Part shown: positions 3,373 through 20,216 of the stretch, one piece after another
Layout: each line of letters starts with the position of its first letter
How positions within the stretch are numbered: position 1 is the first letter of the stretch
Source of the DNA: Rhodobiaceae bacterium
Lineage (GTDB): Bacteria > Pseudomonadota > Alphaproteobacteria > Rhizobiales > JAKPQE01
Direction of reading: 5' to 3'
Length of the DNA stretch: 64,000 bases
Assembly (NCBI GenBank): GCA_028278505.1
Contig: JANQEG010000027.1
Span: 6,025 to 70,024 of the forward strand
The notes under the pieces: model-generated
The model's database searches: none
Told to the model about the DNA's origin: nothing
The model's input: only the letters and a program-made list of their open reading frames with translations
Translations under genes and position numbers: made by a program

Positions 3373-3462
3373 GGATGGGTGGCCGAGTGGTTGAAGGCAC
3401 CGGTCTTGAAAACCGGCAGGCGGGAGACCGTCTCGTGGGTTCGAATCCCACCCCATCCGCCA
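3373..3462 (+). tRNA. tRNA-Ser (anticodon TGA)
   Basis: Acceptor stem GGATGGG/CCCATCC, anticodon arm CCGGT-CTTGAAA-ACCGG, long variable arm, GGTTCGAATCC T-loop, encoded CCA; 90 nt. Confidence 0.97.
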
Positions 3463-3641: not shown

Positions 3642-5036
3642 GTGACACCTGGGAAAGAAACGAACTGGGATGTGCTGGTCATCGGCGGCGGCAACGCGGC
3701 GCTGTGTGCGGCGATTACCGCGGCGGAGGCCGGGGCGCAGGCGCTCATCCTGGAAGGCGCACCAAAGGCCTATCGCGGCGGCAATTCGCGGCACACGCGG
3801 AATTTCCGCTGCATGCATTCCGGCCCGCTCGGCGTCCTCACCGACGCCTATGGCGAAGATGAGTATTTCGACGATCTCCTGAACGTCACCAAGGGCAAGA
3901 CCGATGCGGCGCTCGCCCGCATGGTCATCCGCCAATCTGAGGAATGCTATCCGTGGATGCACGATCACGGCGTCCACTTTCAACCGTCATTGTCGGGAAC
4001 GCTATCGCTGTCGCGCACCAATGCGTTTTTTCTCGGGGGCGGCAAGGCGCTGGTGAACGCCTATTACCGCACGGCGGAACGGCTCGGCGTTACCGTGCTC
4101 TACGACGCCGAAGTCACCCATATACATCTCGACGGCGGTCGCATCGCCCATGTGGACGCCCGGATCGACGGCACGCCGCAGCGCTTTGCGGCGAAGGCCG
4201 TCGTCGCCGCCGCCGGCGGATTCGAGGCCAATATCGAATGGTTGACCGAGGCCTGGGGCCCGGCCGCAGCTAACTTCCTGATCCGCGGTACGCCTTACAA
4301 TCGCGGGGCGGTGCTGAAAGATCTGCTCGACCAGGACATCGCCTCGGTCGGCGATCCCACCCAGTGCCACGCGGTGGCGATCGACGGGCGCGCGCCGAAG
4401 TTCGACGGCGGAATTGTCACACGACTCGACTGCGTGCCGTTCTCGGTCGTCGTCAACAGGCACGGAGAGCGGTTCTACGACGAGGGCGAGGACGTATGGC
4501 CGAAACGCTACGCGATCTGGGGCCGTCTGGTCGCCGCCCAGCCCGATCAGGTGGCTTATGCGATCATCGATTCAAAAAGCCTGGACCTGTTCATGCCTTC
4601 CGTGTTCCCGCCGGTGACGGCCGAAACGCTGGATGAGCTGGCGGAGAAACTGGACCTGCCGGCGCAAAAGCTCGTTGCAACGATCACGGCCTTCAACGCG
4701 GCCTGCCGGCCGGGCGATTTCTATCCGACCGAACTGGACGGTCTGGCCACCTCCGGTCTTTCCCCGGAAAAGACCAATTGGGCTCGGCCGATCGCCGAGC
4801 CGCCCTTTTACGGCTACGCGCTTCGCCCCGGCGTCACCTTCACCTATCTCGGATTGAAGGTCGACGACGGGGCACGGGTGCAGGGCCCGGAGGGCCCGAT
4901 CGACAATCTGTGGGCCGCAGGCGAGATTATGGCCGGTTCGATTCTCGGGCAAGGCTATCTGGCCGGCTTCGGCATGACGATCGGCACCGTCTTCGGGCGC
5001 ATTGCAGGCAATGAGGCGGCGGCCCATGCGCGCTGA
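3642..5036 (+). CDS. tcuA: FAD-dependent tricarballylate dehydrogenase
   Basis: DVLVIGGGNAALCAA FAD motif, RGGNSRHTRN, FFLGGGKALVN, WPKRYAIWG, GQGYLAGFGMTIG; adjacent to tcuB. Confidence 0.92.
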   Translation: MTPGKETNWDVLVIGGGNAALCAAITAAEAGAQALILEGAPKAYRGGNSRHTRNFRCMHSGPLGVLTDAYGEDEYFDDLLNVTKGKTDAALARMVIRQSEECYPWMHDHGVHFQPSLSGTLSLSRTNAFFLGGGKALVNAYYRTAERLGVTVLYDAEVTHIHLDGGRIAHVDARIDGTPQRFAAKAVVAAAGGFEANIEWLTEAWGPAAANFLIRGTPYNRGAVLKDLLDQDIASVGDPTQCHAVAIDGRAPKFDGGIVTRLDCVPFSVVVNRHGERFYDEGEDVWPKRYAIWGRLVAAQPDQVAYAIIDSKSLDLFMPSVFPPVTAETLDELAEKLDLPAQKLVATITAFNAACRPGDFYPTELDGLATSGLSPEKTNWARPIAEPPFYGYALRPGVTFTYLGLKVDDGARVQGPEGPIDNLWAAGEIMAGSILGQGYLAGFGMTIGTVFGRIAGNEAAAHAR

Positions 5037-6141
5037 AGTCAACGGTTCACGAGAAACACGCGCCGAGGCGCGACGCCAGATCGAGATCTGCAATGCCTGC
5101 CGCTATTGCGAGGGCTATTGTTCGGTGTTCCCGGCGCTCATGCGCGAGCGTTCCTTTTCGGACGCCGACATCATCCAGTTCGCCAATCTCTGCCACAATT
5201 GCCGCGGCTGCTATTACGCCTGCCAGTACACCGAACCGCACGAGTTCGCGCTCAACCTGCCGAAAGTGCTGGCCGAAGCGCGGCAGGACAGCTGGCGGGA
5301 ATACGCCTGGCCGCGCCCGCTCGCCAACCTCTTTCATGAGCGCGGCGTTGCGCTGGCCCTGGCGGTCGTTGCCGGTATTGCGGTCATCATAGGGCTCGCC
5401 CGTCTGCTCGCCCCGACCGACGGCGAGGGTTTTTACGCCTATCTCTCGCACGGAGCCATGGTGGCGATCTTCCTGCCCGCCTTCGTGTTGCCGCTTGTCG
5501 CCGTTGCCGTCTCGCTGCGGCGCTATTGGACATCGATCGGCGGCGGTACGGTGCGGCTTTCCCACGTCATTGCCGCGACCAGAGCAGCCGCGACAATGAA
5601 AGACCTCGACGGCGGCCATGGCGACGGCTGCAATTTCGAGGATGAGGACCGCTATTCCAATGGCCGCCGCCATGCGCACCAGGCCGTGCTCTACGGCTTC
5701 CTCCTGTGCTTTGCCTCCACCTCGGTCGCGACGCTGATGCACTATATCCTCGACATGCCGGCACCCTATCCGATTTACAGCCTGCCGAAACTTCTCGGCC
5801 TGCTCGGCGGCATCCTGCTTTGCCTCGGCACCGCGGTGCTCGCCCTCCTCAAAGTGAAGGCGGACAGGTCCCTCGGCGATGTCCGGGTCTGGGGCGGCGA
5901 AATGGCCTTCACCGGGCTGGTGTTCCTCGTCGCAGCTTCAGGCCTGTTGCTCTACGCGGCCACCGGCACAAGCCTCGTCATGCCGCTGCTCGCGCTCCAT
6001 CTTGGCGCAGTGCTCGCCTTCTTTCTTGCAACGCCATTCTCGAAGATGATGCACGGATTCTACCGGTGCGCCGCCCTCGTAAAAGAGGCTGCGACCTCGG
6101 GATTACGGCACTCCATCACCGATCAGGGCAACCGAATCTAA
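5026..6141 (+). CDS. tcuB: Tricarballylate utilization 4Fe-4S membrane protein
   Basis: CNACRYCEGYC and CHNCRGCYYACQY Fe-S motifs, multiple TM segments, PFSKMMHGFYR; overlaps tcuA stop. Confidence 0.92.
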   Translation: MRAEVNGSRETRAEARRQIEICNACRYCEGYCSVFPALMRERSFSDADIIQFANLCHNCRGCYYACQYTEPHEFALNLPKVLAEARQDSWREYAWPRPLANLFHERGVALALAVVAGIAVIIGLARLLAPTDGEGFYAYLSHGAMVAIFLPAFVLPLVAVAVSLRRYWTSIGGGTVRLSHVIAATRAAATMKDLDGGHGDGCNFEDEDRYSNGRRHAHQAVLYGFLLCFASTSVATLMHYILDMPAPYPIYSLPKLLGLLGGILLCLGTAVLALLKVKADRSLGDVRVWGGEMAFTGLVFLVAASGLLLYAATGTSLVMPLLALHLGAVLAFFLATPFSKMMHGFYRCAALVKEAATSGLRHSITDQGNRI

Positions 6142-6155
6142 CCGGAGTATTTCAG

Positions 6156-7436
6156 ATGCAAATCACGGGCATGCTCTACGGCAGTCGCTTGCTGCGCCAT
6201 GTCGGGTTTCCGGCAACGGAAATCCTCGGGCCGGGCGCGAGCGAGGACGAGATCCGCGATCTGATCGAACGCCATCAGACGATCTTCATCAAGCCGCTGT
6301 TCAAGGGCGGGATCGGCAAGAAGGGCAAGGCCGGCCTGATCGGCAAGGCGCAGGATCTCAAAACCGCGCTTGCGGAAAAGGAACGGCTCTATTTCGCCGA
6401 GCACCGGCACGGCAATGCCGTGGCCAAAGCCAACGGCGTCACCTTCGAGGCCGGCGTTCCGGCCGAGCACGAGGTCTATTTCTCGATCACCGACGATACG
6501 CGCTATCGAGCGCCGACGATGACGTTGACCCATAAGGGCGGCATCGAGATCGAGGAATTGGACAAATCCGAAATCGCCACCGTGCCCTTCGACGCCCTGA
6601 CCGGGCTGAAGGCCTTTGTCGTCGCCAATGCGCTTAGCGACATCAACGCATCGAAAGAGGTCATCTCGCCGCTCGTCCAGCAACTGCCGAAACTGTGGGA
6701 GCTGATGCACCATTACGGCATGACGACGCTGGAGCTCAATCCGATCCGCATGCGGCCGGGCAAGGGCGGGCGGCTGACGCCGGTCGCCTGCGATTTCAAA
6801 TGCGGCTTCGACCGCGACGATCCGCGCGTCGCCCGGCTCGGCCTGCCCGACCATCTGTTCGCTTCCGACATCTCGGCATTCGAGCAGGAGGTCAATCTGC
6901 TCAGAACCCATCAGGGCCAGTCGGATGTCTTCGTCATCAACGATCAGGGCACGATCCTGGCGCCGACCTTCGGCGGCGGCGCCAACAGCCTGGTCACCGA
7001 AGTGCTCGGCGACGCGGCGATCATCTCGTCCGATTTCGGCGGCAATCCGCCCTATGAGAAGATGAAGGCGGTGGCGTCGATCTGCTACCGCCATTTCCTG
7101 AAGCAGACCAACGTGCTCTTCATCATCGGCGGCAAATCCAACAACACCGACATCTTCGAGACCTTCCGCGGCATGGGCGACGCGCTGCGCGAGCATTTCT
7201 CCGCGCACGGGCCGACGCCGCTTTACGTGGTCGTCGGCCGCGGCGGCCCTAACCTCGTTCGCGGCCTGGGCAATCTGGCGGAGACCTGCGACGCGCTCGG
7301 CCTGCCCTACCGGTTCTTCGGCTTCGACAGCGCGATTTCCGAAGTCGTCAACTACGCCAAGGACGTCGACAAATGGATGCGCGGCGGCGGCCGGGCGGAA
7401 ATCGCCCGCCTGATCGGCGCCAGTGAAGCAGTTTGA
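6156..7436 (+). CDS. aclB: ATP citrate lyase beta-like subunit (ATP-grasp + citrate-binding domain)
   Basis: IKP..GGIGKKGKAGL ATP-grasp, LELNP, FGGGANS, IIGGKSNNTD, GRGGPN resembling ACL citrate-binding motifs; GGAG RBS. Confidence 0.75.
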   Translation: MQITGMLYGSRLLRHVGFPATEILGPGASEDEIRDLIERHQTIFIKPLFKGGIGKKGKAGLIGKAQDLKTALAEKERLYFAEHRHGNAVAKANGVTFEAGVPAEHEVYFSITDDTRYRAPTMTLTHKGGIEIEELDKSEIATVPFDALTGLKAFVVANALSDINASKEVISPLVQQLPKLWELMHHYGMTTLELNPIRMRPGKGGRLTPVACDFKCGFDRDDPRVARLGLPDHLFASDISAFEQEVNLLRTHQGQSDVFVINDQGTILAPTFGGGANSLVTEVLGDAAIISSDFGGNPPYEKMKAVASICYRHFLKQTNVLFIIGGKSNNTDIFETFRGMGDALREHFSAHGPTPLYVVVGRGGPNLVRGLGNLAETCDALGLPYRFFGFDSAISEVVNYAKDVDKWMRGGGRAEIARLIGASEAV

Positions 7437-7447
7437 GGCCGAAGACA

Positions 7448-10159
7448 ATGCACAAGCCAGGCATCGAGGGAATTCCCTACTATCTCGGCATCAACTCGTT
7501 GAGCGAGATCGCCACCCGCGACGATACCGTCGTCGTTCTTAACGCCATGGGCGGCGAAAGCCGGCAGGTGACGCCGGTGTCGCACGCGTTTTCGGGCGGC
7601 AATGTGGTGTTCGGCGTATCGCCCGGCCGGCGCGGGCAGAAGCTGCCGACGCCCGCCGGCGACATCCCGATCTACAACAATGTCCGCGAGGGCCTTGAAG
7701 ACGGGCACCGGTTCAACACCGGCGTCGTCTACCTGCCGCCGTCGGGCGTGCGCGACGGCGTCGCCGAACTCATCCGGGTCAATCCCGATCTGAGGAAGAT
7801 CGTCATCATCACCGAAAAGGTCGCCGTGCATGATGCCCGCGAGATCCGCGCCATGGCCCAGGCCAACGGGGTCGACGTGATCGGCGGCAACTGCCTCGGC
7901 GTCGCCGACAGTTGGAACCGGGTGCGGATCGGCGGTGCACTCGGCGGCGATCACCCGGACGAATCGCTGCTCAAGGGATCGATCGCGATCTTCTCCAATT
8001 CCGGCGGCTTCACCACGACGATCGCCCAATATCTGGCGACCGAGGGCTGGGGCACCTCGACGCTGATTTCGTCGGGCAAGGACGTCTACATCCACTATGG
8101 CGCGCGCGATTTCGCCCATGCCCTGAAGAATGACGACCGCACCAAGGCCGCCGTCCTCTATGTGGAGCCGGGCGGCTATTACGAGCGCGGCGTCGATTTC
8201 GGCAAGCCGGTGGTCGCCTGTGTCGTCGGCCGCTGGAAGTCGAAGCTCACCCGCGCCGTCGGCCATGCCGGCGCGATGGCGGGCTCCGGCGACAGGGCCG
8301 AAGACAAGGAAGACTGGTTCATCGACGCCTTTGGCACCGGCGGCCTGTTCACGCCCGAGGACCCGAAGGTTTCGGCCAAAGGCGCCGTCGTCACCAACAT
8401 CGCCCATATTCCGGCGGCACTGACGGCGGTGATGAAGCTCAACGGCGTTGAAACGGACTTCGCCTCGACGGGAAGCCTGTCGCTGAAGCCGTGGATGTCG
8501 AACGATCAGGGGCTGACGCTGCCGGCCGATATCGACCTGCCCCCGGTTGCAGCACCCGAACCCTACGGCACCCAGATCGAGGTCATCGGCAAGCAGATCG
8601 GCGCCGTGATCGCGCGCCAGACGATGAAGGACAAGTCCGGCGCCTCGTCCATGGACCCCAAGACCCAGGTGACGAGCGTGCACGGAAAATCGGTGCTCGA
8701 AATGGCGCTCGAGCCGCTCGAGGCGATCTTCGCGCTGCCGCTGGTGCACGAGATCGCCGACGACAACGCCCGCGCCCTGCTCGATGTCGCGGTCGCCGCG
8801 GAAGTCAATCTCGTCGGCGATCCCGCGCTGGTCGCCGCCGAGGCGTCGCGCGAGGCCGGCAATTCGCCGAACGTGGTCATGGCCGCGGCGGCCTCGATCA
8901 TCGGGCCGAACCGGATCGACCGTGCGCTCGCCTGCGCGCGCACGCTGATCACGCTCTTTGCCCAGAGCGGACTGCGCGATGGCCAGGATACCGGGTTCGA
9001 CGCATCAGGAATCGCGGTCGATGCCGAAGCCCGGGCACTGTTTGCGGCCGATGACGACGAGGCCGACGATCCGCGCCCGGAGGCTGTGCTGAAGGCGGTT
9101 GCGGCGCGCGGCGGCAAGTCCGTGTTCATCGATTTCCTGACCGGGCTCGGCATACGGCTGTCGCGGGATGCGCTGCTGGCGGCGATCGCAACGACGATTG
9201 CCTGGGGGCCGCTTCTGCGCAAGCGCATCACCCGGCTGACCGCGGAAACCCTGCCCTGGTATCTCAGGCTCTACGGCGTGATGATCGGCGCCACCATTCC
9301 CGCCGAACACCACCGGCACGGCTCGCTCTGGGGAATTCCGCGCCAGGAGCGCTTCGAACACTGGACCATGGCGGATCTGTGCTTCCTGGCGATGACCGGC
9401 AAGAAGCCGCAGGGCGAGGACGCGCTGCCGCTGCAGATGCTGATCGGCCTCCTGATCTCCAACGGTCCCGGCTCGATCTCGGCGCAAGGAGCAAAAGGCG
9501 CGGTGGCCGCGGACGGCCCGCAGACGCCGTCGCGGGTGCAGATCAACAAGGCGATGATCGGCTTTCTCTCGCACAGCGGCTACAGCCATGGCGGCAACGG
9601 TTTCGAAGGCATGGCGATGCTTCTGGAGGAGTTCAAGGACACTGGGCTCGCCGATCCGACCGATCCCGGCCACGGGCTCGACCTGAAGGCGATGGCGAAG
9701 CGGTTCGCCGAGGCCTACAAGGCCGAAAAGGCGGCTGCCAAGGAGGTCGGCGGCGAGGTCCGCGCGCTTCCCGGCATCCATCATCCGGTCTTCAAGGGCA
9801 ATCAGGTCAACTATGATCCGCGCGAGCGCTTTCTCGCGGAATACCTGGAAAAGCGCGGCGATTACAACATCTTCCTGGCGTTCTACCGGGAGGTCGTCGA
9901 GGCCATTTACGCGGTCGGCGCGACGCGCAACGTGTTCTGCGTCAATGTCGACGCGGTCATTGCGGCGCTGCTCCTCGCCATTCTCTGGAAGGACTACAGG
10001 GCCGGGAAGCTGAGCGAACGGGCGCTTGAAACGGCCGCCTTCACCGTGTTCCTCTACGGCCGCATGATCGGCTCGGCCGCCGAGATCGACGACCATCTCA
10101 ATCGCGGCCGCAACATGGACACGCGAACGCCGGTATCGGCCTGCGGCTTCGTTGTTTAG
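7448..10159 (+). CDS. aclA: ATP citrate lyase alpha-like subunit, long form (CoA-binding, phospho-His ligase, citryl-CoA lyase-like domains)
   Basis: IGGNCLG, SNSGG, VGHAGA phospho-His motif; C-terminal citrate-synthase-fold motifs SHGGNG, PGIHHPVFK, DPR, NVDAVIA. Confidence 0.75.
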   Translation: MHKPGIEGIPYYLGINSLSEIATRDDTVVVLNAMGGESRQVTPVSHAFSGGNVVFGVSPGRRGQKLPTPAGDIPIYNNVREGLEDGHRFNTGVVYLPPSGVRDGVAELIRVNPDLRKIVIITEKVAVHDAREIRAMAQANGVDVIGGNCLGVADSWNRVRIGGALGGDHPDESLLKGSIAIFSNSGGFTTTIAQYLATEGWGTSTLISSGKDVYIHYGARDFAHALKNDDRTKAAVLYVEPGGYYERGVDFGKPVVACVVGRWKSKLTRAVGHAGAMAGSGDRAEDKEDWFIDAFGTGGLFTPEDPKVSAKGAVVTNIAHIPAALTAVMKLNGVETDFASTGSLSLKPWMSNDQGLTLPADIDLPPVAAPEPYGTQIEVIGKQIGAVIARQTMKDKSGASSMDPKTQVTSVHGKSVLEMALEPLEAIFALPLVHEIADDNARALLDVAVAAEVNLVGDPALVAAEASREAGNSPNVVMAAAASIIGPNRIDRALACARTLITLFAQSGLRDGQDTGFDASGIAVDAEARALFAADDDEADDPRPEAVLKAVAARGGKSVFIDFLTGLGIRLSRDALLAAIATTIAWGPLLRKRITRLTAETLPWYLRLYGVMIGATIPAEHHRHGSLWGIPRQERFEHWTMADLCFLAMTGKKPQGEDALPLQMLIGLLISNGPGSISAQGAKGAVAADGPQTPSRVQINKAMIGFLSHSGYSHGGNGFEGMAMLLEEFKDTGLADPTDPGHGLDLKAMAKRFAEAYKAEKAAAKEVGGEVRALPGIHHPVFKGNQVNYDPRERFLAEYLEKRGDYNIFLAFYREVVEAIYAVGATRNVFCVNVDAVIAALLLAILWKDYRAGKLSERALETAAFTVFLYGRMIGSAAEIDDHLNRGRNMDTRTPVSACGFVV

Positions 10160-11550
10160 AGCATCGGGCTCTCCGATCCGGGTGCCGCCAGCGGCAGCCG
10201 GATCGAGATGCGCGCGCCGATGTCGCTCTCGTCTATGCAGACGCTGCCGCCATGGTTCTGCGCGGTTTCGACGACGATGGCGAGGCCGAGGCCCGAACCT
10301 TCGGCCGGGCCGACCTGACCGAAACGGGCAAAGGCGGTCTCGGCGTCTTCCGGCTTGATGCCGATACCGCTATCGCTGACGGTGACACGCGCTTCAGTGT
10401 CGGCGGCGGAAACCGCGACGGTGATCTTGGTGTTGTTCGAACCGCCGTGGACGAGGGCGTTGTCGATCAGGTTTTCGACCGCCTCTTCGAGGAATACGGG
10501 ATCGCCGTGAACCGGCACCGACCTGGCGGCGGGAACGAATTCGAAGTCGATTTCGCGATCCAGCACGCGCTTGGCGTTGCGCTCGCACACGTCCCGAGCA
10601 AGCGCGTTCAGGTCGATGACCTGCCTGGTCGTCGGATCGGTGCGGCCCCTGGCCCGTTCCAAAGAGAGCAATTGCTGGGTCAGCCGCGCGACATGTTTGG
10701 CGGCGGCGACCAGATCCTCGGTGCGCGACAGCCGGGCATCGTCGCTCCTCGCATCGCGAACGGATTCGGCAATGGACAGAACGCCGGCGATCGGATTGCG
10801 AAGCTGGTGCGCCGCATCCGAGATGAAGGCATCCCGGGACGCAAAGGCGCGGGTCACCTGATCAAAAAGGCCGTTCAAGGTGCGCACGATCCCCGACACC
10901 TCGCGCGGGATCGGACGCCGGATGCGGCTCAGATCGTCCGAGGAGCGGATCGAGATCGCCTCTTGCAGGTCGGTGAGCGGTTTCAGCCCGAGATTGATGC
11001 CGAACCAGACGACCAGCACGACGGTCAGGATCAGCGATCCCATGACGATCGCGGCGCGGCCGGCGAGATCGCGCGCAAACGCCTGCCGCGCCGCCATCGT
11101 CTGCCAGACAGTGATGGTCGAATATCCGCTGATCGTGTCGATGGTCACGAATTCGCGCAACCGCGCGACCCGAACCTCTTCGCCGCGATAGCGCGACAGG
11201 AAAAGAATGGGAGCACCGTTGTTCACCTGCAAATCGCGCGGCGCCACCGGCGGCGTCGCATAGCCGGTGATAAAGACGCCGTCCGGCCCGTGAACATGAT
11301 AGAAGACTTCGCCGCCGGAACTGCTGCGGATCAGGTCGAGCGTCGACGACGAAATCGCGTCGCCGCCCGAAACCGCAACGTCGCGGGAAATGGCGAGCGT
11401 CGTCGCCATCAGCGTCCGGTCGAACAGCTCTTCCGCCGTCTTGGTGGCGGTCGTGATCCGCCAATAGCCGGCGAGGATCGAGATCGCGACGAGCGGGATC
11501 AGGATGAGGAGCAACAGCCGCGCCCGCAGCGACGCCGGCTTCGCGATCAT
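10156..11550 (-). CDS. tctE: TctE-like sensor histidine kinase
   Basis: SLRARLL N-terminus, two TMs, FISDAAHQLRNP H-box, NLIDNA, DSGIGI, GSGLGLAIV. Confidence 0.85.
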   Translation of the reverse strand: MIAKPASLRARLLLLILIPLVAISILAGYWRITTATKTAEELFDRTLMATTLAISRDVAVSGGDAISSSTLDLIRSSSGGEVFYHVHGPDGVFITGYATPPVAPRDLQVNNGAPILFLSRYRGEEVRVARLREFVTIDTISGYSTITVWQTMAARQAFARDLAGRAAIVMGSLILTVVLVVWFGINLGLKPLTDLQEAISIRSSDDLSRIRRPIPREVSGIVRTLNGLFDQVTRAFASRDAFISDAAHQLRNPIAGVLSIAESVRDARSDDARLSRTEDLVAAAKHVARLTQQLLSLERARGRTDPTTRQVIDLNALARDVCERNAKRVLDREIDFEFVPAARSVPVHGDPVFLEEAVENLIDNALVHGGSNNTKITVAVSAADTEARVTVSDSGIGIKPEDAETAFARFGQVGPAEGSGLGLAIVVETAQNHGGSVCIDESDIGARISIRLPLAAPGSESPML

Positions 11551-12215
11551 GTTTCCTCTTCCATCAAATAGCCGAGGCCGCGCGCCGCCTTGATGCGGAT
11601 GCCGCAGTCGTCGAGTTTCTTTCTGAGCCTTGAAATGTGCACTTCGACGATCTTTTCGTCGACGTCCGCGCCGGTGCCGTAGATATGGTCGGCGAGCACC
11701 GATTTCGGCACAAGCCGGCCGCGCCGATGCAGCAGGCACTCAAAGGCGGCAAGTTCCCGCCGGGTCAGCTCGACCGCGTCATCATTGTTGCGCAATATCC
11801 GGGCGCCCGGATCGAAGACCAGACACCCGATCGGCTCGACCGGCGGCCGGTCGATCCCGCGGCGCCGCGACAATGCGCGGACCCGCGCTTCGAGTTCCGC
11901 CATCTCGAAGGGCTTTACAAGATAGTCGTCGGCACCAGCATCGAGCCCGTCGACCCGGTCGGTGACTTCCGAGCGTGCCGTCAACAACAGCACCGGCGTG
12001 TTGTCGTTGCGCGCGCGAAGTTTGCGGAGCACGTCGAGCCCGTTCAGTCCGGGAAGATTGATGTCGAGAATGACGAGGTCGGCGCCTTCATGGGCGAGAT
12101 GATCGTTGCCGTCCTCGCCATCGTGAAGAACATCGACCGCATGACCTTGATCTCGCAATCGGTAGGCGATGCCGGCAGCCAGCGATTTGTTGTCTTCGAT
12201 AACGGCAATACGCAT
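11547..12215 (-). CDS. tctD: TctD-like OmpR-family response regulator
   Basis: MRIAVIEDN, LDINLPG, GADDYLVKPF, VEVHISRLRKKL, RGLGY; divergent from tctC. Confidence 0.87.
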   Translation of the reverse strand: MRIAVIEDNKSLAAGIAYRLRDQGHAVDVLHDGEDGNDHLAHEGADLVILDINLPGLNGLDVLRKLRARNDNTPVLLLTARSEVTDRVDGLDAGADDYLVKPFEMAELEARVRALSRRRGIDRPPVEPIGCLVFDPGARILRNNDDAVELTRRELAAFECLLHRRGRLVPKSVLADHIYGTGADVDEKIVEVHISRLRKKLDDCGIRIKAARGLGYLMEEET

Positions 12216-12226
12216 CGGCCGATCCT

Positions 12227-12248
12227 GCAAGCTTCGCGCAAGCTTGCG
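12227..12248. promoter_or_regulatory. Tandem 11-bp-period repeat GCAAGCTTCGC GCAAGCTTGCG, candidate TctD binding site
   Basis: In the tctD/tctC divergent intergenic region; matches 3577-3598. Confidence 0.6.
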
Positions 12249-12358
12249 ACGATACCTTTGACCGATCAACCCCGGGGAAAAGGTTTCCCGAGGCGAAATC
12301 GGGGAGGTTCGGCCGGATGGCGCGGCCCTCCCCCGTGGCGAGACATTGGGAGGATTGC

Positions 12359-13456
12359 ATGTCCAACTCGAAAACCATCACACGCCGTGCGACGCTCGGA
12401 TTGGCGGCGGTCGCTGCGGCGGCCTTTACGCTGCCGGCACAGGCCGACATGGACCTCAGCGGCAAGACCGTCGAATGGGTCATTCCGTTCTCGGAAAGCG
12501 GCGGCTCGGCAAAATGGGCGAACTTCTATGCGCCGCTCCTGGCCGAGGCGCTGCCCGGTCAGCCGACCGTGGTCGTCAAATTCATGCCGGGTGCCGGCTC
12601 GACCAAGGGCGCCAACTGGTTCCAGACCCAGGCCAAGGCCAACGGATTGACCATATTCGGCTCGTCCGGATCGACGCAGTTCCCTTATCTGCTCGGCGAT
12701 CCGCGCGTCCGGTATGAATACCGGGACTGGAACGTCGTGCTCGCGTCCGGAACCGGCGGCGTCGCCTATCTGCCGCCCGACCTGGCGGAGAAGTGGAAGG
12801 CGGATCCGAAATCCCTGCTCGACGTGGACTTCATCTACGGCTCGCAGGGCGCGACCCGTCTTGACCTGGTGCCGCTGCTGGCCTGGGAAATGCTCGGGCT
12901 GAAGGTGGAGCCGGTGTTCGGCATCAAGGGCCGCGGCGACGGCCGGCTGATGTTCGAGCGCGGTGAGGCCAATATCGACTACCAGACCTCGTCGTCATAT
13001 CTGAAAGGCGTGACGCCGCTGGTCGAGGAAGGCAAGGCCGTGCCGATGATGACCTGGGGCGCGCTCGATGCCGACGGCAATATCGTCCGCGATCCGACCT
13101 TCCCCGACATCCCGACCTTCAAGGAAGTCTATACAATGATGAAGGGCGAGGAGCCGTCGGGCGCGGCCTGGGAGGCCTGGAAGGCGTTCTTCGTTGCCGG
13201 TTTCCCGGCCCAGAAGATGGTGTTCCTGCCGAACGGCGCGACGCAGGAGATGATCGACACCTATTCGAACGCGTTCAAGAAGGTGCATGCGCGGCCCGAC
13301 TTTGCCGAGATCTCCAAGAAGCGCCTCGGCATCTATCCGCAGATGACCGGCGCCGATGCCGATGCGGCGCTCGATCAGGCGATTTCGGTCAGTGACGAGG
13401 CCAAGGATTTCGTCAAGAATTGGCTGAAGGAACGCTATGGCGTCGAGCTGAAATAA
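12359..13456 (+). CDS. tctC: Tripartite tricarboxylate transporter substrate-binding protein (TctC/Bug-like)
   Basis: Signal peptide with RR, VIPFSESGGS, MPGAGS, FPDIPTF; GGAGG RBS; precedes tctA. Confidence 0.85.
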   Translation: MSNSKTITRRATLGLAAVAAAAFTLPAQADMDLSGKTVEWVIPFSESGGSAKWANFYAPLLAEALPGQPTVVVKFMPGAGSTKGANWFQTQAKANGLTIFGSSGSTQFPYLLGDPRVRYEYRDWNVVLASGTGGVAYLPPDLAEKWKADPKSLLDVDFIYGSQGATRLDLVPLLAWEMLGLKVEPVFGIKGRGDGRLMFERGEANIDYQTSSSYLKGVTPLVEEGKAVPMMTWGALDADGNIVRDPTFPDIPTFKEVYTMMKGEEPSGAAWEAWKAFFVAGFPAQKMVFLPNGATQEMIDTYSNAFKKVHARPDFAEISKKRLGIYPQMTGADADAALDQAISVSDEAKDFVKNWLKERYGVELK

Positions 13457-13531: not shown

Positions 13532-15547
13532 ATGGATATTCTTGCGACGGCCCTGCCGGCGTTGAATGAGGCGTTTGCGCTCATTCTGCAGCCACAGCAG
13601 ATCATGTTCCTCGTCCTGGGCGTATTGCTCGGCCTCTCGGTCGGCGTGTTCCCCGGCCTTGGCGGCATTGCCGGGCTCAGCCTGGTTCTCCCCTTCGTCT
13701 ACGGCATGGACCCGGTCGCGGGGCTTGCTCTGATGGTCGGGCTTGTCGCCGTCATCCCCACCTCCGACACCTTCGCCTCGGTGTTGATGGGCATTCCCGG
13801 TTCGTCGGCCTCCCAGGCCACGGTTCTGGACGGATTTCCGCTGGCCAAGCGCGGCGAAGCCGCCCGGGCGCTTGCGGCGGCCTTCACCTCGTCGCTGTTC
13901 GGCGGCCTGTTCGGGGCAACGGTGCTCACCTTCTTCATCCTGATGGCGCGGCCGCTTGTTCTCGCTTTCGGCCTGCCCGAAATGCTGATGATCACGATAC
14001 TGGGCCTGTCGATGGTCGCCATTCTCGCCGGCCGGCTGCCGCTCAAGGGTCTGGCGTCCGCCGGCCTCGGCCTCATGGTCGGCACCATCGGCGCCGCCGA
14101 TGCCGGCGGTTCGCCGCGGATGAGCAGCTATGACATGCCCTACCTCTATGACGGCCTGAAGCTCGTCATCGTCGGCCTCGGCATCTTCGCCATTCCCGAA
14201 ATCATCGCGCTCCTGCGCCAGGACCGGTCGATCGCCAAGAACGCCGAACTCGGGGCCGGATGGATGACCGGCATTCGCGACTGGTGGGCCAACATCTTCC
14301 TGTCAATCCGTTGTTCGACGATCGGCGTCATCGTCGGCGTCATCCCCGGGCTCGGCGGCTCGGTGGTCGACTGGATCGCCTATGGGCACGCGGTCCAGAC
14401 CTCCAGGGACAAGTCGAAATTCGGGTCCGGCGAAATCCGCGGCGTGATCGGGCCGGAAAGCTCCAACAACGCCAAAGAGGGCGGCGGCCTCGTGCCGACG
14501 CTGATCTTCGGCATTCCCGGGTCGGGTTCGATGGCCGTCTTTATCGGCGGCATGGCGCTGCTCGGCTATGACGCCGGACCGCAGCTCATCAGCAACGATC
14601 TCAACATCACCTACACGATCGTCTGGTCGCTGGCGCTCGCCAATGTGGTCGGCGCCGGGTTGTGCATCCTGCTTTCGGGCGGGATCGCGCGGCTGACCAC
14701 CATCCGCTTCACCCTGCTGGCGCCGTTCCTGTTCATGCTGATCTCGTTTGCCGCCTTCCAGTCGCGGCAGTCGCTCGGCGATCTCGTCGCGCTCTTTGCG
14801 GTCGGCCTTGTCGGCATCTTCCTGCGCCGCTTCGACTGGTCGCGGCCGGCGTTTCTGATCGGCTTCGTGCTTTCCGGCCAGGCTGAAAACTACAGCTTCC
14901 AGGCCTATCAGACGGCGAGCTTCCAGTTCCGCCGGAGCATGGAACAGGGGCTTGAATACATCTTCTCGCCGATCGTCATCGTGCTGATCATCGTCACCCT
15001 GGTCTCGGTCGTTCTGGGCATCCGCCAGGCCAAGGCGATCATGCCCGAGGGCGCGGTCGACACCGGAACCAAACGGGCGCCGCTGATCTTCCTCATCGCG
15101 GTCACCGCCTATTTCGTCGTCAGCCTTATCGATGCGGCGATGATCAGTCAGATGACCGACAAGATCTTCCCGGTCTTCATTTCCAGCGTTTCGATCGTCG
15201 CCTGCGTGTTGCTGCTGATCCGCATGATGCGGCAGCCGGAAACGGATGCGGTGTTCGCGGATCGCGAAGCCGCCGGCGAGGATTCCGATGCGGCGCACGG
15301 GCTCTGGGGAACGCTCGCCTGGTTCGCCGGGCTTCTGGTGATGGCGAGTGTCTTCGGCTTCATCATCGCCCTGACCATCTTCCTCATAACCTTCCTGCGC
15401 ATTCGTGCCGGTCTCTCTTGGTTGAAAACGGCGCTGTTCTGCGCCGCCGGCGTCGGCTTCATGATGTCCATGGCGGCGATCCTCAACCGCGACTTCCCGC
15501 CGGGCCTGCTGCAGGCTTATGTCGAACTGCCATGGCCGCTGAAATGA
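13532..15547 (+). CDS. tctA: TTT permease TctA with C-terminal TctB-like extension
   Basis: GVFPGLG, GIPGS, GPESSNNAKEGG, FGIPGS; 671 aa with extra TMs ending DFPPGLL. Confidence 0.87.
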   Translation: MDILATALPALNEAFALILQPQQIMFLVLGVLLGLSVGVFPGLGGIAGLSLVLPFVYGMDPVAGLALMVGLVAVIPTSDTFASVLMGIPGSSASQATVLDGFPLAKRGEAARALAAAFTSSLFGGLFGATVLTFFILMARPLVLAFGLPEMLMITILGLSMVAILAGRLPLKGLASAGLGLMVGTIGAADAGGSPRMSSYDMPYLYDGLKLVIVGLGIFAIPEIIALLRQDRSIAKNAELGAGWMTGIRDWWANIFLSIRCSTIGVIVGVIPGLGGSVVDWIAYGHAVQTSRDKSKFGSGEIRGVIGPESSNNAKEGGGLVPTLIFGIPGSGSMAVFIGGMALLGYDAGPQLISNDLNITYTIVWSLALANVVGAGLCILLSGGIARLTTIRFTLLAPFLFMLISFAAFQSRQSLGDLVALFAVGLVGIFLRRFDWSRPAFLIGFVLSGQAENYSFQAYQTASFQFRRSMEQGLEYIFSPIVIVLIIVTLVSVVLGIRQAKAIMPEGAVDTGTKRAPLIFLIAVTAYFVVSLIDAAMISQMTDKIFPVFISSVSIVACVLLLIRMMRQPETDAVFADREAAGEDSDAAHGLWGTLAWFAGLLVMASVFGFIIALTIFLITFLRIRAGLSWLKTALFCAAGVGFMMSMAAILNRDFPPGLLQAYVELPWPLK

Positions 15548-16668
15548 CCCAGACCGCCATCCCCTTCCTGTTCATGCGCGGCGGCACCTCGCGCGGACCG
15601 TATTTCAAGCGGTCCGACCTGCCGGAAGACCGGGGTTTCCTCGCAGATGTCCTTGTCGCCGCGGTCGGGTCCGGCCACCCGCTCAACATTGACGGTATCG
15701 GCGGCGGCGCTGCGGTGACGACCAAGGTCGCGATGCTGTCGGCGTCCGAGGATGGCTGGGCCGATGTCGACTATTTCTTTGCCCAGGTCAGCGTCGAGGA
15801 CCGCCTGGTCGACTTCAAGCCGACCTGCGGCAATATCCTGGCCGGCGTCGGCCCGGCGGCGATCGAAATGGGCCTCGTTTCTGCCGAGGACGGTGTGACC
15901 ACCGTGAACATCCGCGCCGTCAACACCGGCGCGCGGGTCGTCTCCAAGGTGGAGACGCCGGGCGGACGCGTCCGCTATGACGGCGACACCGCGATCGACG
16001 GCGTGCCGGGGACGGCGGCGCCTTTGGAATTGAACTTCATGGATGTCGCCGGTTCGGCAACCGGCGCGTTGCTGCCGACCGGAAATCTCCGCGACGCGGT
16101 CGGCGGCATCGAAGTAACCTGCATGGACGCGGCGATGCCGATGGTGATCGCCAGGGCGGACGCCTTCGACCTGACCGGCTATGAAAGCTGCGACGAACTC
16201 GACGCCGACACGGCGTTTTTTGAGCGCATGGAGGCGGTTCGGATCGCGGCCGGGCGGATGATGGGCCTCGGCGATGTCTCAAAATCGGTCATCCCCAAAT
16301 TCGGCGTCCTGGCCCCGGCGCGGGCCGGCGGCACGATCGCGGCGCGCTATTTCATGCCGTGGAACACCCACCCGACGATGGCGGTGACCGGATCGCAATG
16401 TCTGGCGTCTTGCGCGTTGACGCCGGGCACGGTCGCCGACGGCCTTCTGGAGAGGCCCGACCAAAGCCCGACCACGGTGACGATCGAGCATCCCTCGGGG
16501 ACGATCGACGTGCTCGTCGATTTCCAATTGGACGACGACGCCTTCACCTTGAATTCCGCCGGCCTCGTCCGCACCGCGCGCAAGCTTGCCGCCGGCGACC
16601 TTTTCGTTCCGGCGGCGATTTGGGACGGATCGGCCGCACCTGAAACGAGATCGGAGACTTTCGGATGA
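15544..16668 (+). CDS. PrpF/4-oxalomesaconate tautomerase family isomerase
   Basis: MRGGTSRG, IDGIGG..TTKV, TCGNILAGV, IEHPSG, RTARKL. Confidence 0.88.
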   Translation: MTQTAIPFLFMRGGTSRGPYFKRSDLPEDRGFLADVLVAAVGSGHPLNIDGIGGGAAVTTKVAMLSASEDGWADVDYFFAQVSVEDRLVDFKPTCGNILAGVGPAAIEMGLVSAEDGVTTVNIRAVNTGARVVSKVETPGGRVRYDGDTAIDGVPGTAAPLELNFMDVAGSATGALLPTGNLRDAVGGIEVTCMDAAMPMVIARADAFDLTGYESCDELDADTAFFERMEAVRIAAGRMMGLGDVSKSVIPKFGVLAPARAGGTIAARYFMPWNTHPTMAVTGSQCLASCALTPGTVADGLLERPDQSPTTVTIEHPSGTIDVLVDFQLDDDAFTLNSAGLVRTARKLAAGDLFVPAAIWDGSAAPETRSETFG

Positions 16669-17486
16669 GCATCCGCAACATTCTCGTCGCCTGCAATGAC
16701 GCCGAAGGCGCGCCGAACGCGCTTCTGTTCGGCGGCACGCTGGCCAAACGCCACGATGCCCATCTGACCGGGCTGCTGGCGACCGCGGCCCATGAATCCT
16801 ATGCCGCCGAAAGCCGCTGGATACCCGATGAGGTGCGCGCGATCATTGCCCGCGCCAACGCCGACGCCGCCGAGAGAATCGAAAAACGCTTTCGGGATTT
16901 CGGCGCCACGCTCGGTCTCGGCGACCGCCTCCACTTTGCGCGGGCCGAGGGCCGTGTCGACGCCGTTGTCGCGCAAATGGCGCGCAGTTTCGACATTCTC
17001 CTCCTCGACCAGCTCGCCAGCGACGTGGACGACCACCATTTGCTTCTCCATCCCGATCGGATCGCCCTGCAGAGCGGCCGTCCGGTCATGCTGGTGCCGA
17101 AGACCTTCGACACCGAAACGCGGTTTTCCAACGCGATTCTGGCCTGGGACGGCCGGCGCGCGGCCGCCCGCGCATTTGCCGATGCCCTCGACCTGCTGGA
17201 GCCGGGCGCAACACTCTCCATTCTCACGGTCGGTCAAATGAGATTGCCGCGCCCGGTCGAGGAAATCGCCGCGCAAGTCGCCCGCCATGGATTGACTCCC
17301 CTCCCCGCCCAACTGCCGGCGACGACTAACGAGGCAGAGGCGGTCCTCGATTTCTGTCGGGAGCAAAGCGCGGACCTGCTGATCATGGGGGCCTATGAGC
17401 ACAGCAAGTTCCGCACGGAAATCTTCGGCAGCATGTCGTCGACCGTTTTGCGGAAATGCCCGGCGCCGGTCATCATCTCCCACTAA
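16665..17486 (+). CDS. Universal stress protein (two UspA domains)
   Basis: [39 protein letters not shown]. Confidence 0.88.
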
Positions 17487-17498
17487 CGAGGGATCAGC

Positions 17499-17711
17499 AT
17501 GACGAAAACACCGGCCGACCACGTTACCGACGCAAAGGCGAGCCTGCTTTCCGCCAAGCAGGAACTTGCCGACCAGATCGCGAACTATCCCTCGCCGATC
17601 GCCGGCTGCGATGCGCAGTTCAACCATCTGCTCGCCGAACGGCGGCGGATCGATGCGGCGCTTACCGCACTTGGCGCCGAAATCCATATTCCGACGCCGC
17701 GTGCGCCCTAA
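17499..17711 (+). CDS. Small hypothetical protein (helix - [16 protein letters not shown] - helix)
   Basis: GAGGG RBS, tight packing between USP and dehydrogenase genes. Confidence 0.65.
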
Positions 17712-17725
17712 AAAGGCTACCGCCG

Positions 17726-18724
17726 ATGCGCGTCTCCATCCTCGACGACTATTTCGATACGCTGCGCCGCCTGCCCTGCTTCCGAAAGCTCGACGGTTTC
17801 GACGTCACGGTGTGGACCGACCATGTCCAGGATAGGGACGCGCTTGTGGAGCGTTTGCGGGATACGGAAGTGCTCGTCCTTTTTCGCGAGCGCACGCGGA
17901 TCACCGGGGAATTGCTGGACCGGCTGCCCAAGCTGAAGCTCATCAGCCAGCGCAGCGTCTATCCGCACATCGACATTGAGGCCTGCACCCGCAACGGCGT
18001 GCTCGTTTCGTCCAACATGCACGCCGGCACGCCGTCCTATGCGGCAGCCGAACTGACCTGGGGCCTGATCCTTTCCGGCATGCGGCAGATCCCTGAGCAG
18101 ATGGCGTCGCTGAAGGCCGGGCACTGGCAGATGGGTGTCGGCCGGACGCTGCGTGGGCGGCTGCTCGGCCTTTATGGCTATGGCCGGATTGCGGGAGCCC
18201 TGGCCGGCTATGCCAAGGCGTTCGGAATGGACGTCGTCTGGTGGTCGTCGGAAGCGGGGCGCGCCAGGGCGATGGCCGCCGGAGAGACTATTGCCGCCTC
18301 CCGTGAAGCGTTCTTTGCCGAGCCCGACATCGTCAGCGTTCACGTGCGGCTGAAACCGACCACCCGCGGCATCATCACGAAGCGCGACCTTGCCGAAATG
18401 CGTCCCGACGCCCTCTTCGTCAACACCTCGCGGGCCGGTCTGGTCGAGGACGGCGCGCTCTTGGCCGCGCTCAATGCCGGCCGGCCCGGACAGGCCGCGA
18501 TCGATGTCTTCGACATCGAGCCGGTAACCGATCCGGCCGATCCGCTGCTTTCGCACAAAAACGTCATTGCGACCCCGCATATCGGCTACGTCACAGAAGA
18601 CGAGTTCGAGCTGCAGTTTTCGGACATTTTCGATCAGATCACCGCCTATGCCGAGGGCGCGCCGATCCACATGATCAATCCGGAAGTGTGGGCGTCGAGG
18701 GTGTCAATCGGCATTGAAATCTGA
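17726..18724 (+). CDS. D-2-hydroxyacid dehydrogenase family protein
   Basis: [41 protein letters not shown]. Confidence 0.9.
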
Positions 18725-20179: not shown

Positions 20180-20216
20180 CCTTGGATTTGCGGTCCCGCG
20201 GGCCGAAGGGGCAAAA

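Follow-up and report, generated by a model that had tools for sequence, protein, structure and literature searches.

A candidate catabolic ATP-citrate-lyase-like enzyme encoded with tcuAB beside tricarboxylate uptake genes in a Rhodobiaceae bacterium

Type I ATP-citrate lyase (ACL; AclAB/ACLY, solved as 6hxj, 6hxi and 6hxh) arranges its modules in the order ATP-grasp, citrate-binding, CoA-binding, phosphohistidine and lyase, with a lyase module of ∼260 aa in an alpha chain of ∼600 aa. Type II ACL has two subunits, the larger of ∼900 aa, and serves as a marker of the reductive TCA (rTCA) cycle; the homologous clade of Geobacter has been modelled in the same way in the literature, where it is treated as citrate-cleaving. 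In Hydrogenobacter thermophilus, a citryl-CoA synthetase (6hxq) and a citryl-CoA lyase (6hxp) have been solved. Described systems for tricarboxylates include tcuRABC of Salmonella, the TctCBA/TctDE uptake system and the tar system; according to PMC11495376, the PrpF-family proteins TarA/TbrA are aconitate isomerases. A tct or tar operon with an ACL-like enzyme was not found in the literature searched. Here we describe a locus with parts related to such systems in the window, the whole 64,000-nucleotide stretch of DNA analysed, from a Rhodobiaceae bacterium.

Four genes of the window share the plus strand, and a check of the ORF coordinates confirmed the one overlap and the two short gaps reported between them in an earlier note on this DNA. 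tcuA (3642..5036) encodes a predicted FAD-dependent tricarballylate dehydrogenase and tcuB (5002, 5011 or 5026 to 6141) its putative membrane 4Fe-4S partner; aclS (6156..7436) and aclL (7448..10159) encode the small and large subunits of an ACL-like enzyme. Depending on whether tcuB starts at TTG 5002, ATG 5011 or ATG 5026, it overlaps the end of tcuA (stop codon TGA 5034-5036) by 11-35 nt. The aclS ATG lies 14 nt past the tcuB stop and is preceded, 9 nt upstream, by GGAG; the aclL ATG lies 11 nt past the aclS stop, which is overlapped by GAGG. Because both gaps are this short and carry ribosome-binding sites, a single transcription unit is predicted, and we infer that tcuAB is co-transcribed with aclSL. 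Six terminator-like sites were found inside the cluster against 7.9 expected, none beyond chance. Directly upstream of the cluster is a tRNA-Ser gene (3373-3462), and a 160-aa ORF without assigned family also lies upstream of tcuA.

TcuA matched Pfam FAD_binding_2; its score was 692 bits with NF006130, whose cut-off is 369, and 617 with TIGR02485. TcuB scored 344 bits against TIGR02484 (cut-off 246.6), so that both reached equivalog-level matches, in common with the Salmonella system; against NF011607, TcuB stayed under the cut-off (387 versus 524 bits). In the TcuB translation, two Cys-rich cluster motifs precede hydrophobic stretches, and tcuA is single-copy in the window genome. Unlike in Salmonella, however, the operon appears to run on into aclSL, and tcuR and tcuC are absent, as the earlier note had stated: no LysR regulator or MFS transporter gene occurs among the neighbours scanned. 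Their roles in uptake and control have apparently been taken over by a tripartite tricarboxylate transporter (TTT) system and a TctDE-like pair.

AclS matched Pfam ATP-grasp_2 (PF08442, 52.7 bits) and Citrate_bind (PF16114, 51.9 bits), both above the cut-offs, and AclL matched CoA_binding (PF02629) and Succ_CoA_lig (PF13607), with a weak match to Citrate_synt under the cut-off (20.6 versus 27 bits). AclL is 903 aa long and consists of a SucD-like CoA-binding/phosphohistidine domain (residues ∼1-330), a linker and a citrate-synthase-like lyase module (∼400-903). An assignment to SucCD or MtkAB was rejected, with SucC at 56 bits (cut-off 370), MtkA at 26.6 (604) and SucD at 116.5 (336), and is also contradicted by the additional citrate-binding and lyase domains, which upholds the original view of an ACL-like enzyme distinct from both families; a genuine SucD is encoded elsewhere in the window genome, adjoining sucA. 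Judged by its domains, AclS/AclL has every part of an ACL, including the C-terminal lyase module. The module order is that of type I ACL, and Foldseek aligned the entire AclL with the ACL alpha chains of Chlorobium and Methanothrix. Nonetheless, type I was rejected for AclL on length, as its lyase is a full ∼500-aa citrate-synthase fold; the alpha chain is long because it carries this full-size fold where classical ACL has a short module. The nearest solved relative of both synthetase subunits was the citryl-CoA synthetase of H. thermophilus: AclS scored 89 bits with the large subunit 6hxq_B, compared with 65 and 51 for ACL (65 for type I) and 28 for SucC, and AclL scored 122 bits with 6hxq_A, compared with 52.6 for type I ACL. 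In contrast to the H. thermophilus system, the lyase of the window enzyme forms one chain with the small synthetase subunit and has double the length, and the hosts of such enzymes are mesophilic heterotrophs.

The earlier note had likened the long alpha chain to the type II ACLs of Magnetococcus and Endoriftia. Our comparison with type II was made through the published primers and the Geobacter-type clade. Sites for acl2F1 (position 8299, 4/22 mismatches) and acl2R1 (9596, 6/21) fall on homologous motifs of aclL, the next-best sites having 9 and 7 mismatches. The primer peptides AKEEWF and NGFEAIA suit the Geobacter-type clade, whereas EDKExWF and NGFEGMA take their place in the window clade; the Geobacter/Desulfobacter clade fits the published primers best. 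The clade of the window enzyme is tight (72-81% identity), with members in no fewer than 579 species genomes, spread over alpha-, beta- and gammaproteobacteria. Its sister clade, that of Geobacter/Desulfobacter, shows ∼44% identity for AclL and ∼50% for AclS, and the two split with 100/100 support. The relationship to type II thus stands, in the two-subunit make-up, the length of the large subunit and the primer-target motifs, but the window enzyme belongs to a separate sister clade, apparently outside the type II clade of autotrophs and anaerobes, with an uptake-linked, catabolic context rather than one of central anaerobic metabolism.

The catalytic motifs are consistent with an enzyme that forms and splits a CoA thioester. 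The phosphohistidine loop GHAGA (AclL residues 272-276) aligns with GHAGA of 6hxq_A and SucD. In AF2 models of AclL (pLDDT 82 and 83), the lyase module (model residues 1-502) matched citrate and 2-methylcitrate synthases with a VIA Z of 26 and an rmsd of 3.2-3.5 Å across 325-340 residues. A HMMER alignment with the citryl-CoA lyase 6hxp, itself weak (E 2e-5 with profile A3, 0.11 with profile A4), retained His713, the His of HHP, DPR790 and Asp835 together with the SHGG and NVD motifs. In every aligned sequence the substrate-side His of the lyase's 'DHG' motif is replaced by Asn (SNGPG), which counts against citrate cleavage. The AclS loops aligned to N346/T348, R379 and G309 of human ACLY are conserved, and 57 window-clade sequences show little or no variation in the acid-binding loops GGKSNNTD, GRGGPN and DFGGNPP (S at residue 328 in 54 sequences and A in 3; G at residue 361 in 56). 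The Geobacter-type clade shares the lyase motifs as well as these loops, which are near-identical in 62 of its sequences, S328 → A being the sole consistent change. ATP- and CoA-dependent cleavage of citrate by AclS/AclL is a prediction, citrate being the presumed substrate.

Convergent with aclL, the window encodes a TctE-like sensor histidine kinase (10156..11739, minus strand; Pfam 2CSK_N, HisKA and HATPase_c) and an OmpR-type response regulator (11547..12269, minus strand; Response_reg and Trans_reg_C) whose best family is TctD, the top match to NF012023 (201.9 bits) lying under the cut-off of 337. The next genes are on the plus strand. The first (12317..13456) encodes a putative periplasmic solute-binding protein with a twin-arginine-like signal in its translation; it has no Pfam or NCBIfam match, being too diverged for Pfam TctC, and a weak match to the TctC-family structure 6hke (E 0.001) suggests a distant TctC relative. 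Its homologs adjoin AclSL in 6/80 loci of the survey described below. It is followed by a fused TctA-TctB membrane component of a TTT (13532..15547; TctA 385 bits, TctB part 24.5 bits and under the cut-off). The window resembles TctCBA/TctDE in its TctA, putative TctB and TctD-like regulator, and differs from it in the fusion and the diverged binding protein; TctA is clear and the kinase carries 2CSK_N, while TctB, TctD and the binding protein remain below family cut-offs. Next to the transporter, as in the tar system (PMC11495376), lies a PrpF-family gene (15418..16668; Pfam PrpF 330 bits), a candidate aconitate isomerase. NCBIfam names its family, NF033377 (475.7 bits, cut-off 440), 4-oxalomesaconate tautomerase rather than aconitate isomerase, an observation that weighs against a role in aconitate metabolism. 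A universal stress protein family gene (16665..17486, plus strand; Pfam Usp) and a D-isomer-specific 2-hydroxyacid dehydrogenase gene (17456..18724, plus strand; Pfam 2-Hacid_dh_C), which reaches no NCBIfam equivalog cut-off, accompany the cluster in 3/80 and 4/80 loci, respectively.

We set 80 genome loci of the window clade against 80 metagenome loci from the sister clade. aclS adjoined aclL in 76 of the window-clade loci. A TctA homolog lay within the flank in 30/80; in 20/80 it was the immediate upstream neighbour, encoded on the same strand (61 loci had 3 kb or more of sequence on that side). A TctD-like response regulator and a kinase were near in 31 and 26 loci. In the sister clade, TctA and the regulator each occurred once and tcuA/B in no locus; neighbours there included DsrAB/DsrC, tRNA synthetases and flavoprotein/Fe-S pairs. 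tcuA or tcuB was found near aclSL in only six window-clade loci, three of them close kin (Azohydromonas-type), in four differing arrangements. The link between tcuAB and acl first noticed in the window is therefore real, as it recurs, but it is a minority variant: the general partner is the TctCBA/TctDE uptake system. The 74 loci that lack tcuAB count against a pathway built on both. One could suppose that tcuAB and aclSL are two separate tricarboxylate-related modules joined in a mobile island without a common pathway, in line with their rare pairing, the tRNA-Ser gene, the patchy distribution (the enzyme is present in 0/40 relatives of the window genome) and the widely varying contexts of aclSL, which include plasmids with unrelated neighbours. 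We consider this distinctly improbable, as the short gaps with ribosome-binding sites point to one transcription unit, the pairing recurs, with locus L091 having the identical order tcuA-tcuB-aclS-aclL, and by a rough estimate far less than one co-location per 80 loci is expected by chance.

We favour, with a probability of roughly 55%, a reading in which the enzyme works catabolically, cleaving citrate in the breakdown of imported tricarboxylates, as part of a tricarboxylate catabolic island. The island would be controlled by the TctDE-like two-component system and served by the adjacent variant TTT transporter (solute-binding protein and fused TctA/TctB). TcuAB would oxidise tricarballylate to cis-aconitate, trans-aconitate would probably be isomerised to the same acid by the PrpF-family enzyme, and a housekeeping aconitase, for which the window genome offers three aconitase-family loci, would lead on to citrate. 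AclS would bind ATP and the hydroxy-tricarboxylate, phosphate would be carried on His273 of AclL, and the resulting citryl-CoA-type thioester would be split in the citrate-synthase-like module into acetyl-CoA and oxaloacetate. An imported C6 acid would thus yield acetyl-CoA and a C4 acid with no carbon lost. Of the catabolic role first proposed for the ACL, the uptake-linked rather than carbon-fixing setting is borne out, and citrate as substrate stays a supposition.

Two further points speak against this reading: with citrate synthase in the same cell, a citrate-cleaving enzyme would drive a futile ATP-burning cycle unless both are regulated, and the 4HBT thioesterase gene that follows aclL in 14/80 window-clade loci would be superfluous if the product were acetyl-CoA. 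Both fit an enzyme acting on another hydroxy-tricarboxylate, such as 2-methylcitrate, hydroxycitrate or a lignin-derived acid (e.g. carboxy-hydroxy-oxoadipate), with tcuAB and the isomerase feeding that route or merely sharing the transporter. There would then be no futile cycle, and the thioesterase, like the Amidohydro_2 gene downstream of aclL in 3/80 loci, would suggest an unusual acyl-CoA or lactone step. The tautomerase assignment of the isomerase, the 2-methylcitrate synthases ranking level with citrate synthases among the top structural matches, and the many acids taken by TTT binding proteins (e.g. terephthalate binders) agree with this. Still, the acid-binding loops of AclS are nearly those of a clade held to cleave citrate, and no gallate or protocatechuate ring-cleavage genes occur among the neighbours scanned near the cluster, so we regard another substrate as rather unlikely.

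Hosts of the enzyme are mostly aerobic heterotrophs, among them Sinorhizobium fredii, Halomonas, Variovorax, Paracoccus and Mesorhizobium, which, like its patchy distribution, speaks for a catabolic role; in addition, 3/5 isolates carrying it have no match to POR_N (2-oxoacid:ferredoxin oxidoreductase). The latter backs the earlier suspicion that type II-like acl genes are unreliable markers of autotrophy; they are probably poor markers, as in hundreds of heterotrophs they appear linked to tricarboxylate uptake and not to carbon fixation. The search for rTCA oxidoreductases, which the note had recommended, gave a less uniform answer for the window genome itself. It encodes a RuBisCO large subunit and five POR_N proteins, of which three are alpha subunits of the generic 2-oxoacid:acceptor oxidoreductase type; the oxidoreductases include a PorA-like protein. 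An anabolic role is therefore possible for this organism. AclS/AclL might then serve the rTCA cycle, in keeping with the use made of type II ACL and its Geobacter homologs, or, as reported for Desulfobacter postgatei, act as a citrate synthase that yields ATP; in either case it would be a central enzyme with an anabolic or energy-conserving role. Operation of ACL in acetate oxidation has also been reported. We nevertheless judge such a role very improbable here, given the isolates without POR_N, the position of aclSL between tcuAB and the TctDE-like regulator and adjoining uptake genes, its membership of the transporter-linked rather than the autotroph clade, and a window genome that also encodes 2-oxoglutarate dehydrogenase E1 and citrate synthase.

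More broadly, we tentatively propose, at somewhat less than even odds, a dedicated and horizontally spread catabolic ACL, co-transcribed with TctCBA and in some lineages also with TcuAB and an aconitate isomerase. If so, aerobic heterotrophic proteobacteria would split imported citrate, aconitate and tricarballylate directly to acetyl-CoA and oxaloacetate, and aclAB-like genes would be unusable as rTCA markers. This catabolic ACL, its lyase part still a whole citrate synthase, would be a sister lineage of type II ACL and an extant form midway between citrate synthase and ACL.

The earlier note had described tcuA, tcuB and the two genes of an enzyme resembling ATP-citrate lyase (ACL) as one co-oriented cluster, and inspection of the ORF positions bore this out. 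Both tcuA (3642-5036, +) and tcuB (+, ending at 6141, with its start overlapping the tcuA stop) exceeded the cut-offs of their NCBIfam equivalog models (692 bits versus 369 and 344 bits versus 246.6, respectively). The small-subunit gene aclS (6156-7436, +) starts 14 nt past the tcuB stop with GGAG in front, and the large-subunit gene aclL (7448-10159, +) starts 11 nt past the aclS stop. A promoter and terminator scan of the cluster revealed nothing above chance. The absence of tcuR and tcuC also held, as neither a LysR regulator nor an MFS transporter was detected among the window neighbours scanned with Pfam. For the TcuA/TcuB-like pair, a cobalamin-related (CobZ) function was considered and dismissed, since TcuA and TcuB are encoded separately and the scanned neighbours included no cobalamin genes. 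Among public sequencing runs, the stretch was present in no RNA run, and its sole strong DNA match was one coral metagenome run.

Pfam analysis assigned ATP-grasp and ACL citrate-binding domains to AclS, and a CoA-binding domain, a succinyl-CoA-ligase flavodoxin domain and a weak citrate-synthase match to AclL, which also carries a phosphohistidine loop (GHAGA) at residues 272-276. The nearest solved proteins were the subunits of Hydrogenobacter citryl-CoA synthetase (122 and 89 bits), with classical ACL and SucCD behind. Identity with SucCD or MtkAB, raised in the earlier note as an alternative, is ruled out by scores far below the family cut-offs and by the extra domains of AclS and AclL. 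As the SucD-like domain dominated the Foldseek matches of the whole AclL model, the C-terminal part was folded alone. The AlphaFold model of this C-terminal part (508 residues; pLDDT 83, pTM 0.84) superposed on full-length citrate and 2-methylcitrate synthases (Z 26, rmsd 3.2-3.5 Å over 325-340 residues) and could also be superposed on citryl-CoA lyase (CCL; 6hxp). Since the match to citrate synthases extends across model residues 1-502, the long alpha chain is predicted to contain a whole citrate-synthase-like module rather than an insert of unknown fold. The HMMER alignment to 6hxp was weak, with E 2e-5 for a wide profile (A3), whose top matches stemmed from N-terminal columns, and E 0.11 for a narrower C-terminal profile (A4). 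In this alignment, SHGG (His713), the His of HHP, DPR (790) and NVD (Asp835) of AclL fall on the corresponding CCL residues, and we take the aligned His/His/Asp to be the catalytic triad of citrate synthase. The CCL motif DHG reads SNG in AclL: Asn replaces its His at residue 672 (window ~9461-9463), and SNGPG or TNGPG is present in all aligned sequences of the clade that includes the window enzyme (window clade) and of its sister (Geobacter clade), marking this Asn as an apparent family signature. AclS keeps the loops aligned with N346/T348, R379 and G309 of human ACLY, which presumably act in citrate binding.

AclL matched more than 3000 database proteins, the best 120 of which (76-100% identity, 903-907 aa) carry only the names 'CoA-binding protein', 'hypothetical' or 'succinyl-CoA synthetase alpha'; clade members bear no annotation more specific than 'CoA-binding protein' or, for the other subunit, 'ATP-grasp domain-containing protein'. 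Using one genome per species, relatives were found in at least 579 species genomes. The best 80 of these (72-80% identity) belong to Rhodospirillaceae, Paracoccaceae, Amaricoccus, Mesorhizobium, Xanthobacteraceae, Acetobacteraceae, Variovorax, Azohydromonas, Piscinibacter, Halomonas, Rhodanobacter and others, and there are plasmid-borne copies in Sinorhizobium, Aminobacter and Paraburkholderia. The enzyme is absent from all 40 genomes related to that of the window (2 from the same family, 38 from the same order). This patchy distribution and a tRNA-Ser(TGA) gene (3373-3462) located 180 nt upstream of tcuA hint at an integrated island; no attachment-site repeat was found in the window, as the last 23 nt of the tRNA gene are present only once. 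An AT-rich stretch follows the tRNA gene. Clustering at 50% identity yielded only two other full-length groups, a Variovorax/Paraburkholderia type (59%) and a Geobacter metallireducens type (44%), the latter a large group that includes Geobacteraceae, Desulfobacter, Desulfosarcina, Spirochaetia, KSB1 and Melioribacteraceae. In a maximum-likelihood tree of 30 chosen sequences, the window and Geobacter groups were separated by a long branch with 100/100 support, and branches were very short within the window clade, although its members come from three classes of Proteobacteria and from one Gemmatimonadota MAG.

The long alpha chain had been likened to a type II ACL. In excerpts of PMC6783814, PMC3522073 and PMC6315080, this postulated enzyme is taken to cleave citrate in the reverse TCA (rTCA) cycle, with Magnetococcus Mmc1_3638/3639, tubeworm symbionts and some Chromatiaceae as examples, and a G. 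metallireducens model, as excerpted from PMC3998878, has ATP-citrate lyase within an rTCA pathway. The large-subunit primers for type II ACL, as quoted in the published excerpts, fall on homologous motifs of the window gene with 4/22 and 6/21 mismatches, and the window enzyme is therefore of the type II kind. However, the primer peptides AKEEWF and NGFEAIA occur in Geobacter-clade sequences, whereas the window clade has EDKExWF and NGFEGMA, which, as judged by these primer peptides, places the window enzyme in a sister clade. The likeness stands for the kind of enzyme but probably not for the clade, and AclS/AclL is a new, widespread, uptake-linked form of the type II ACL kind.

This link to uptake was seen in 80 window-clade loci (best 80 of at least 579), in which neighbours were counted by tblastn with the window proteins as queries. 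aclS adjoins aclL in 76 of them, and a TctA homolog is present in 30, directly upstream on the same strand in 20 (the upstream flank is 3 kb or longer in 61 loci). Response regulators (31/80), histidine kinases (26/80) and PrpF-type isomerases (8/80) recur as well, and Pfam confirmed TctC, TctB, TctA, LysR regulators and porins. The commonest layout is (tctD tctE) tctC tctB tctA aclS aclL; for the TctC adjoining aclS, the names of solved relatives were not informative on the ligand. Overall, a catabolic role, as the earlier note had inferred, is well supported by this context. The proposed tcuAB-acl synteny does recur, but it is rare: tcuA or tcuB was found in only 6/80 loci, in four layouts. 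L091 shares the window arrangement, with tcuAB immediately upstream; in L016 tcuAB is downstream, in L035 it is convergent, and in three Azohydromonas-type loci it lies ~8 kb upstream, accompanied by a porin and an SBP_bac_11 protein. A literature search retrieved no coupling of tcuAB or TctCBA with an ACL-like enzyme. In four Azohydromonas-type loci (L040, L047, L055, L056), a Porin_4 porin and a periplasmic SBP_bac_11 protein are encoded just 5' of aclS; SBP_bac_11 is also the family of a periplasmic aconitate isomerase from Pseudomonas. By Pfam, a 4HBT thioesterase lies 3' of aclL in 14/80 loci and an Amidohydro_2 protein in 3/80. The thioesterase is YciA-like and directly follows aclL (L087:12747-13229 and 13 other loci), is absent from the window, and its role beside an enzyme expected to yield acetyl-CoA is unexplained. 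In 80 Geobacter-clade metagenome loci searched with the same queries, TctA and a regulator were each found once and tcuA/B not at all, although the two samples come from different collections with different flanks (10 kb for the window clade, 8 kb for the Geobacter clade). Their neighbours were DsrAB/DsrC, tRNA synthetases and flavoprotein/Fe-S pairs. In ~5/80 of these loci, an FAD_binding_2 flavoprotein and a 4Fe-4S protein are encoded near the ACL-like genes (for example L107:971-2566 and L111:2038-3258), a formal parallel to TcuA/TcuB of the window clade; these proteins may correspond to the tfrAB fumarate reductase named in an excerpt of PMC6315080.

In the window, aclL is followed by genes for a TctE-like kinase (10156-11739, -) and a regulator with TctD as best family (11547-12269, -), then a diverged binding protein, a fused TctA/TctB, a PrpF-family isomerase (15418-16668, +), a Usp protein (16665-17486, +) and a D-2-hydroxyacid dehydrogenase (17456-18724, +). 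This block recurs with aclSL in L017, L035, L081, L086 and L091. The isomerase scored above the NCBIfam cut-off for 4-oxalomesaconate tautomerase; in the same PrpF family, TarA and TbrA are aconitate isomerases, according to an excerpt of PMC11495376. TctA and TctB form a single 671-aa protein (13532-15547), and its partner binding protein (12317-13456) is too diverged for Pfam TctC; the pair recurs in L017, L035, L076, L081 and L086. A 7-bladed lactonase gene and a gene for a TIM-barrel protein resembling 2-oxo-tetronate/hydroxypyruvate isomerases (289 bits, under the cut-off of 325) follow the cluster at 19052-20987.

With regard to the substrate, 57 window-clade sequences show little or no variation in the three acid-binding loops of AclS: residue 328 is S in 54 and A in 3, and residue 361 is G in 56. 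The loops of 62 Geobacter-clade sequences are nearly identical, with A at residue 328 in all 62. If Geobacter-clade enzymes cleave citrate, as the rTCA literature assumes, these loops suggest that the window enzyme most likely does so too. Citrate is a plausible candidate substrate of AclS/AclL, and a putative coupling to TcuAB through aconitase is likewise plausible. The main objections to a citrate-catabolic reading are that the enzyme would cycle futilely with citrate synthase, that the thioesterase has no explanation and that the tcuAB link is rare.

The window genome, a MAG of 3.35 Mb (85% complete), encodes one citrate synthase, three aconitase-family loci and 2-oxoglutarate dehydrogenase E1. 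Beside this oxidative TCA set it has a RuBisCO large subunit (contig C60, 7326-8159) and five POR_N proteins (contigs C132, C81, C43 and C18), namely three generic 2-oxoacid:acceptor oxidoreductase alpha subunits, a PorA-like protein and IorA. The search for rTCA oxidoreductases that had been suggested as a check gave a divided answer: three of five isolates carrying the enzyme (Halomonas ramblicola, a Mesorhizobium and Paracoccus marinaquae) had no POR_N match, a Variovorax and a Piscinibacter had matches, and with five such proteins in the window genome, a reductive cycle might yet operate in the window organism. With RuBisCO and ferredoxin oxidoreductases, this genome could wrongly be credited with two carbon-fixation pathways. 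ACL-like genes serve as rTCA markers in genome and metagenome surveys, and this large clade (at least 579 species genomes; more than 3000 database proteins), wired to uptake genes in heterotrophs, would yield false positives in such use. If citrate is cleaved, the enzyme would define an aerobic route that spares carbon in the use of citrate, aconitate and tricarballylate, and it would call for some means of preventing futile cycling with citrate synthase. A full-length citrate-synthase module on an enzyme resembling succinyl-CoA synthetase is also relevant to the proposal that citrate synthase and ACL descended from citryl-CoA lyase.
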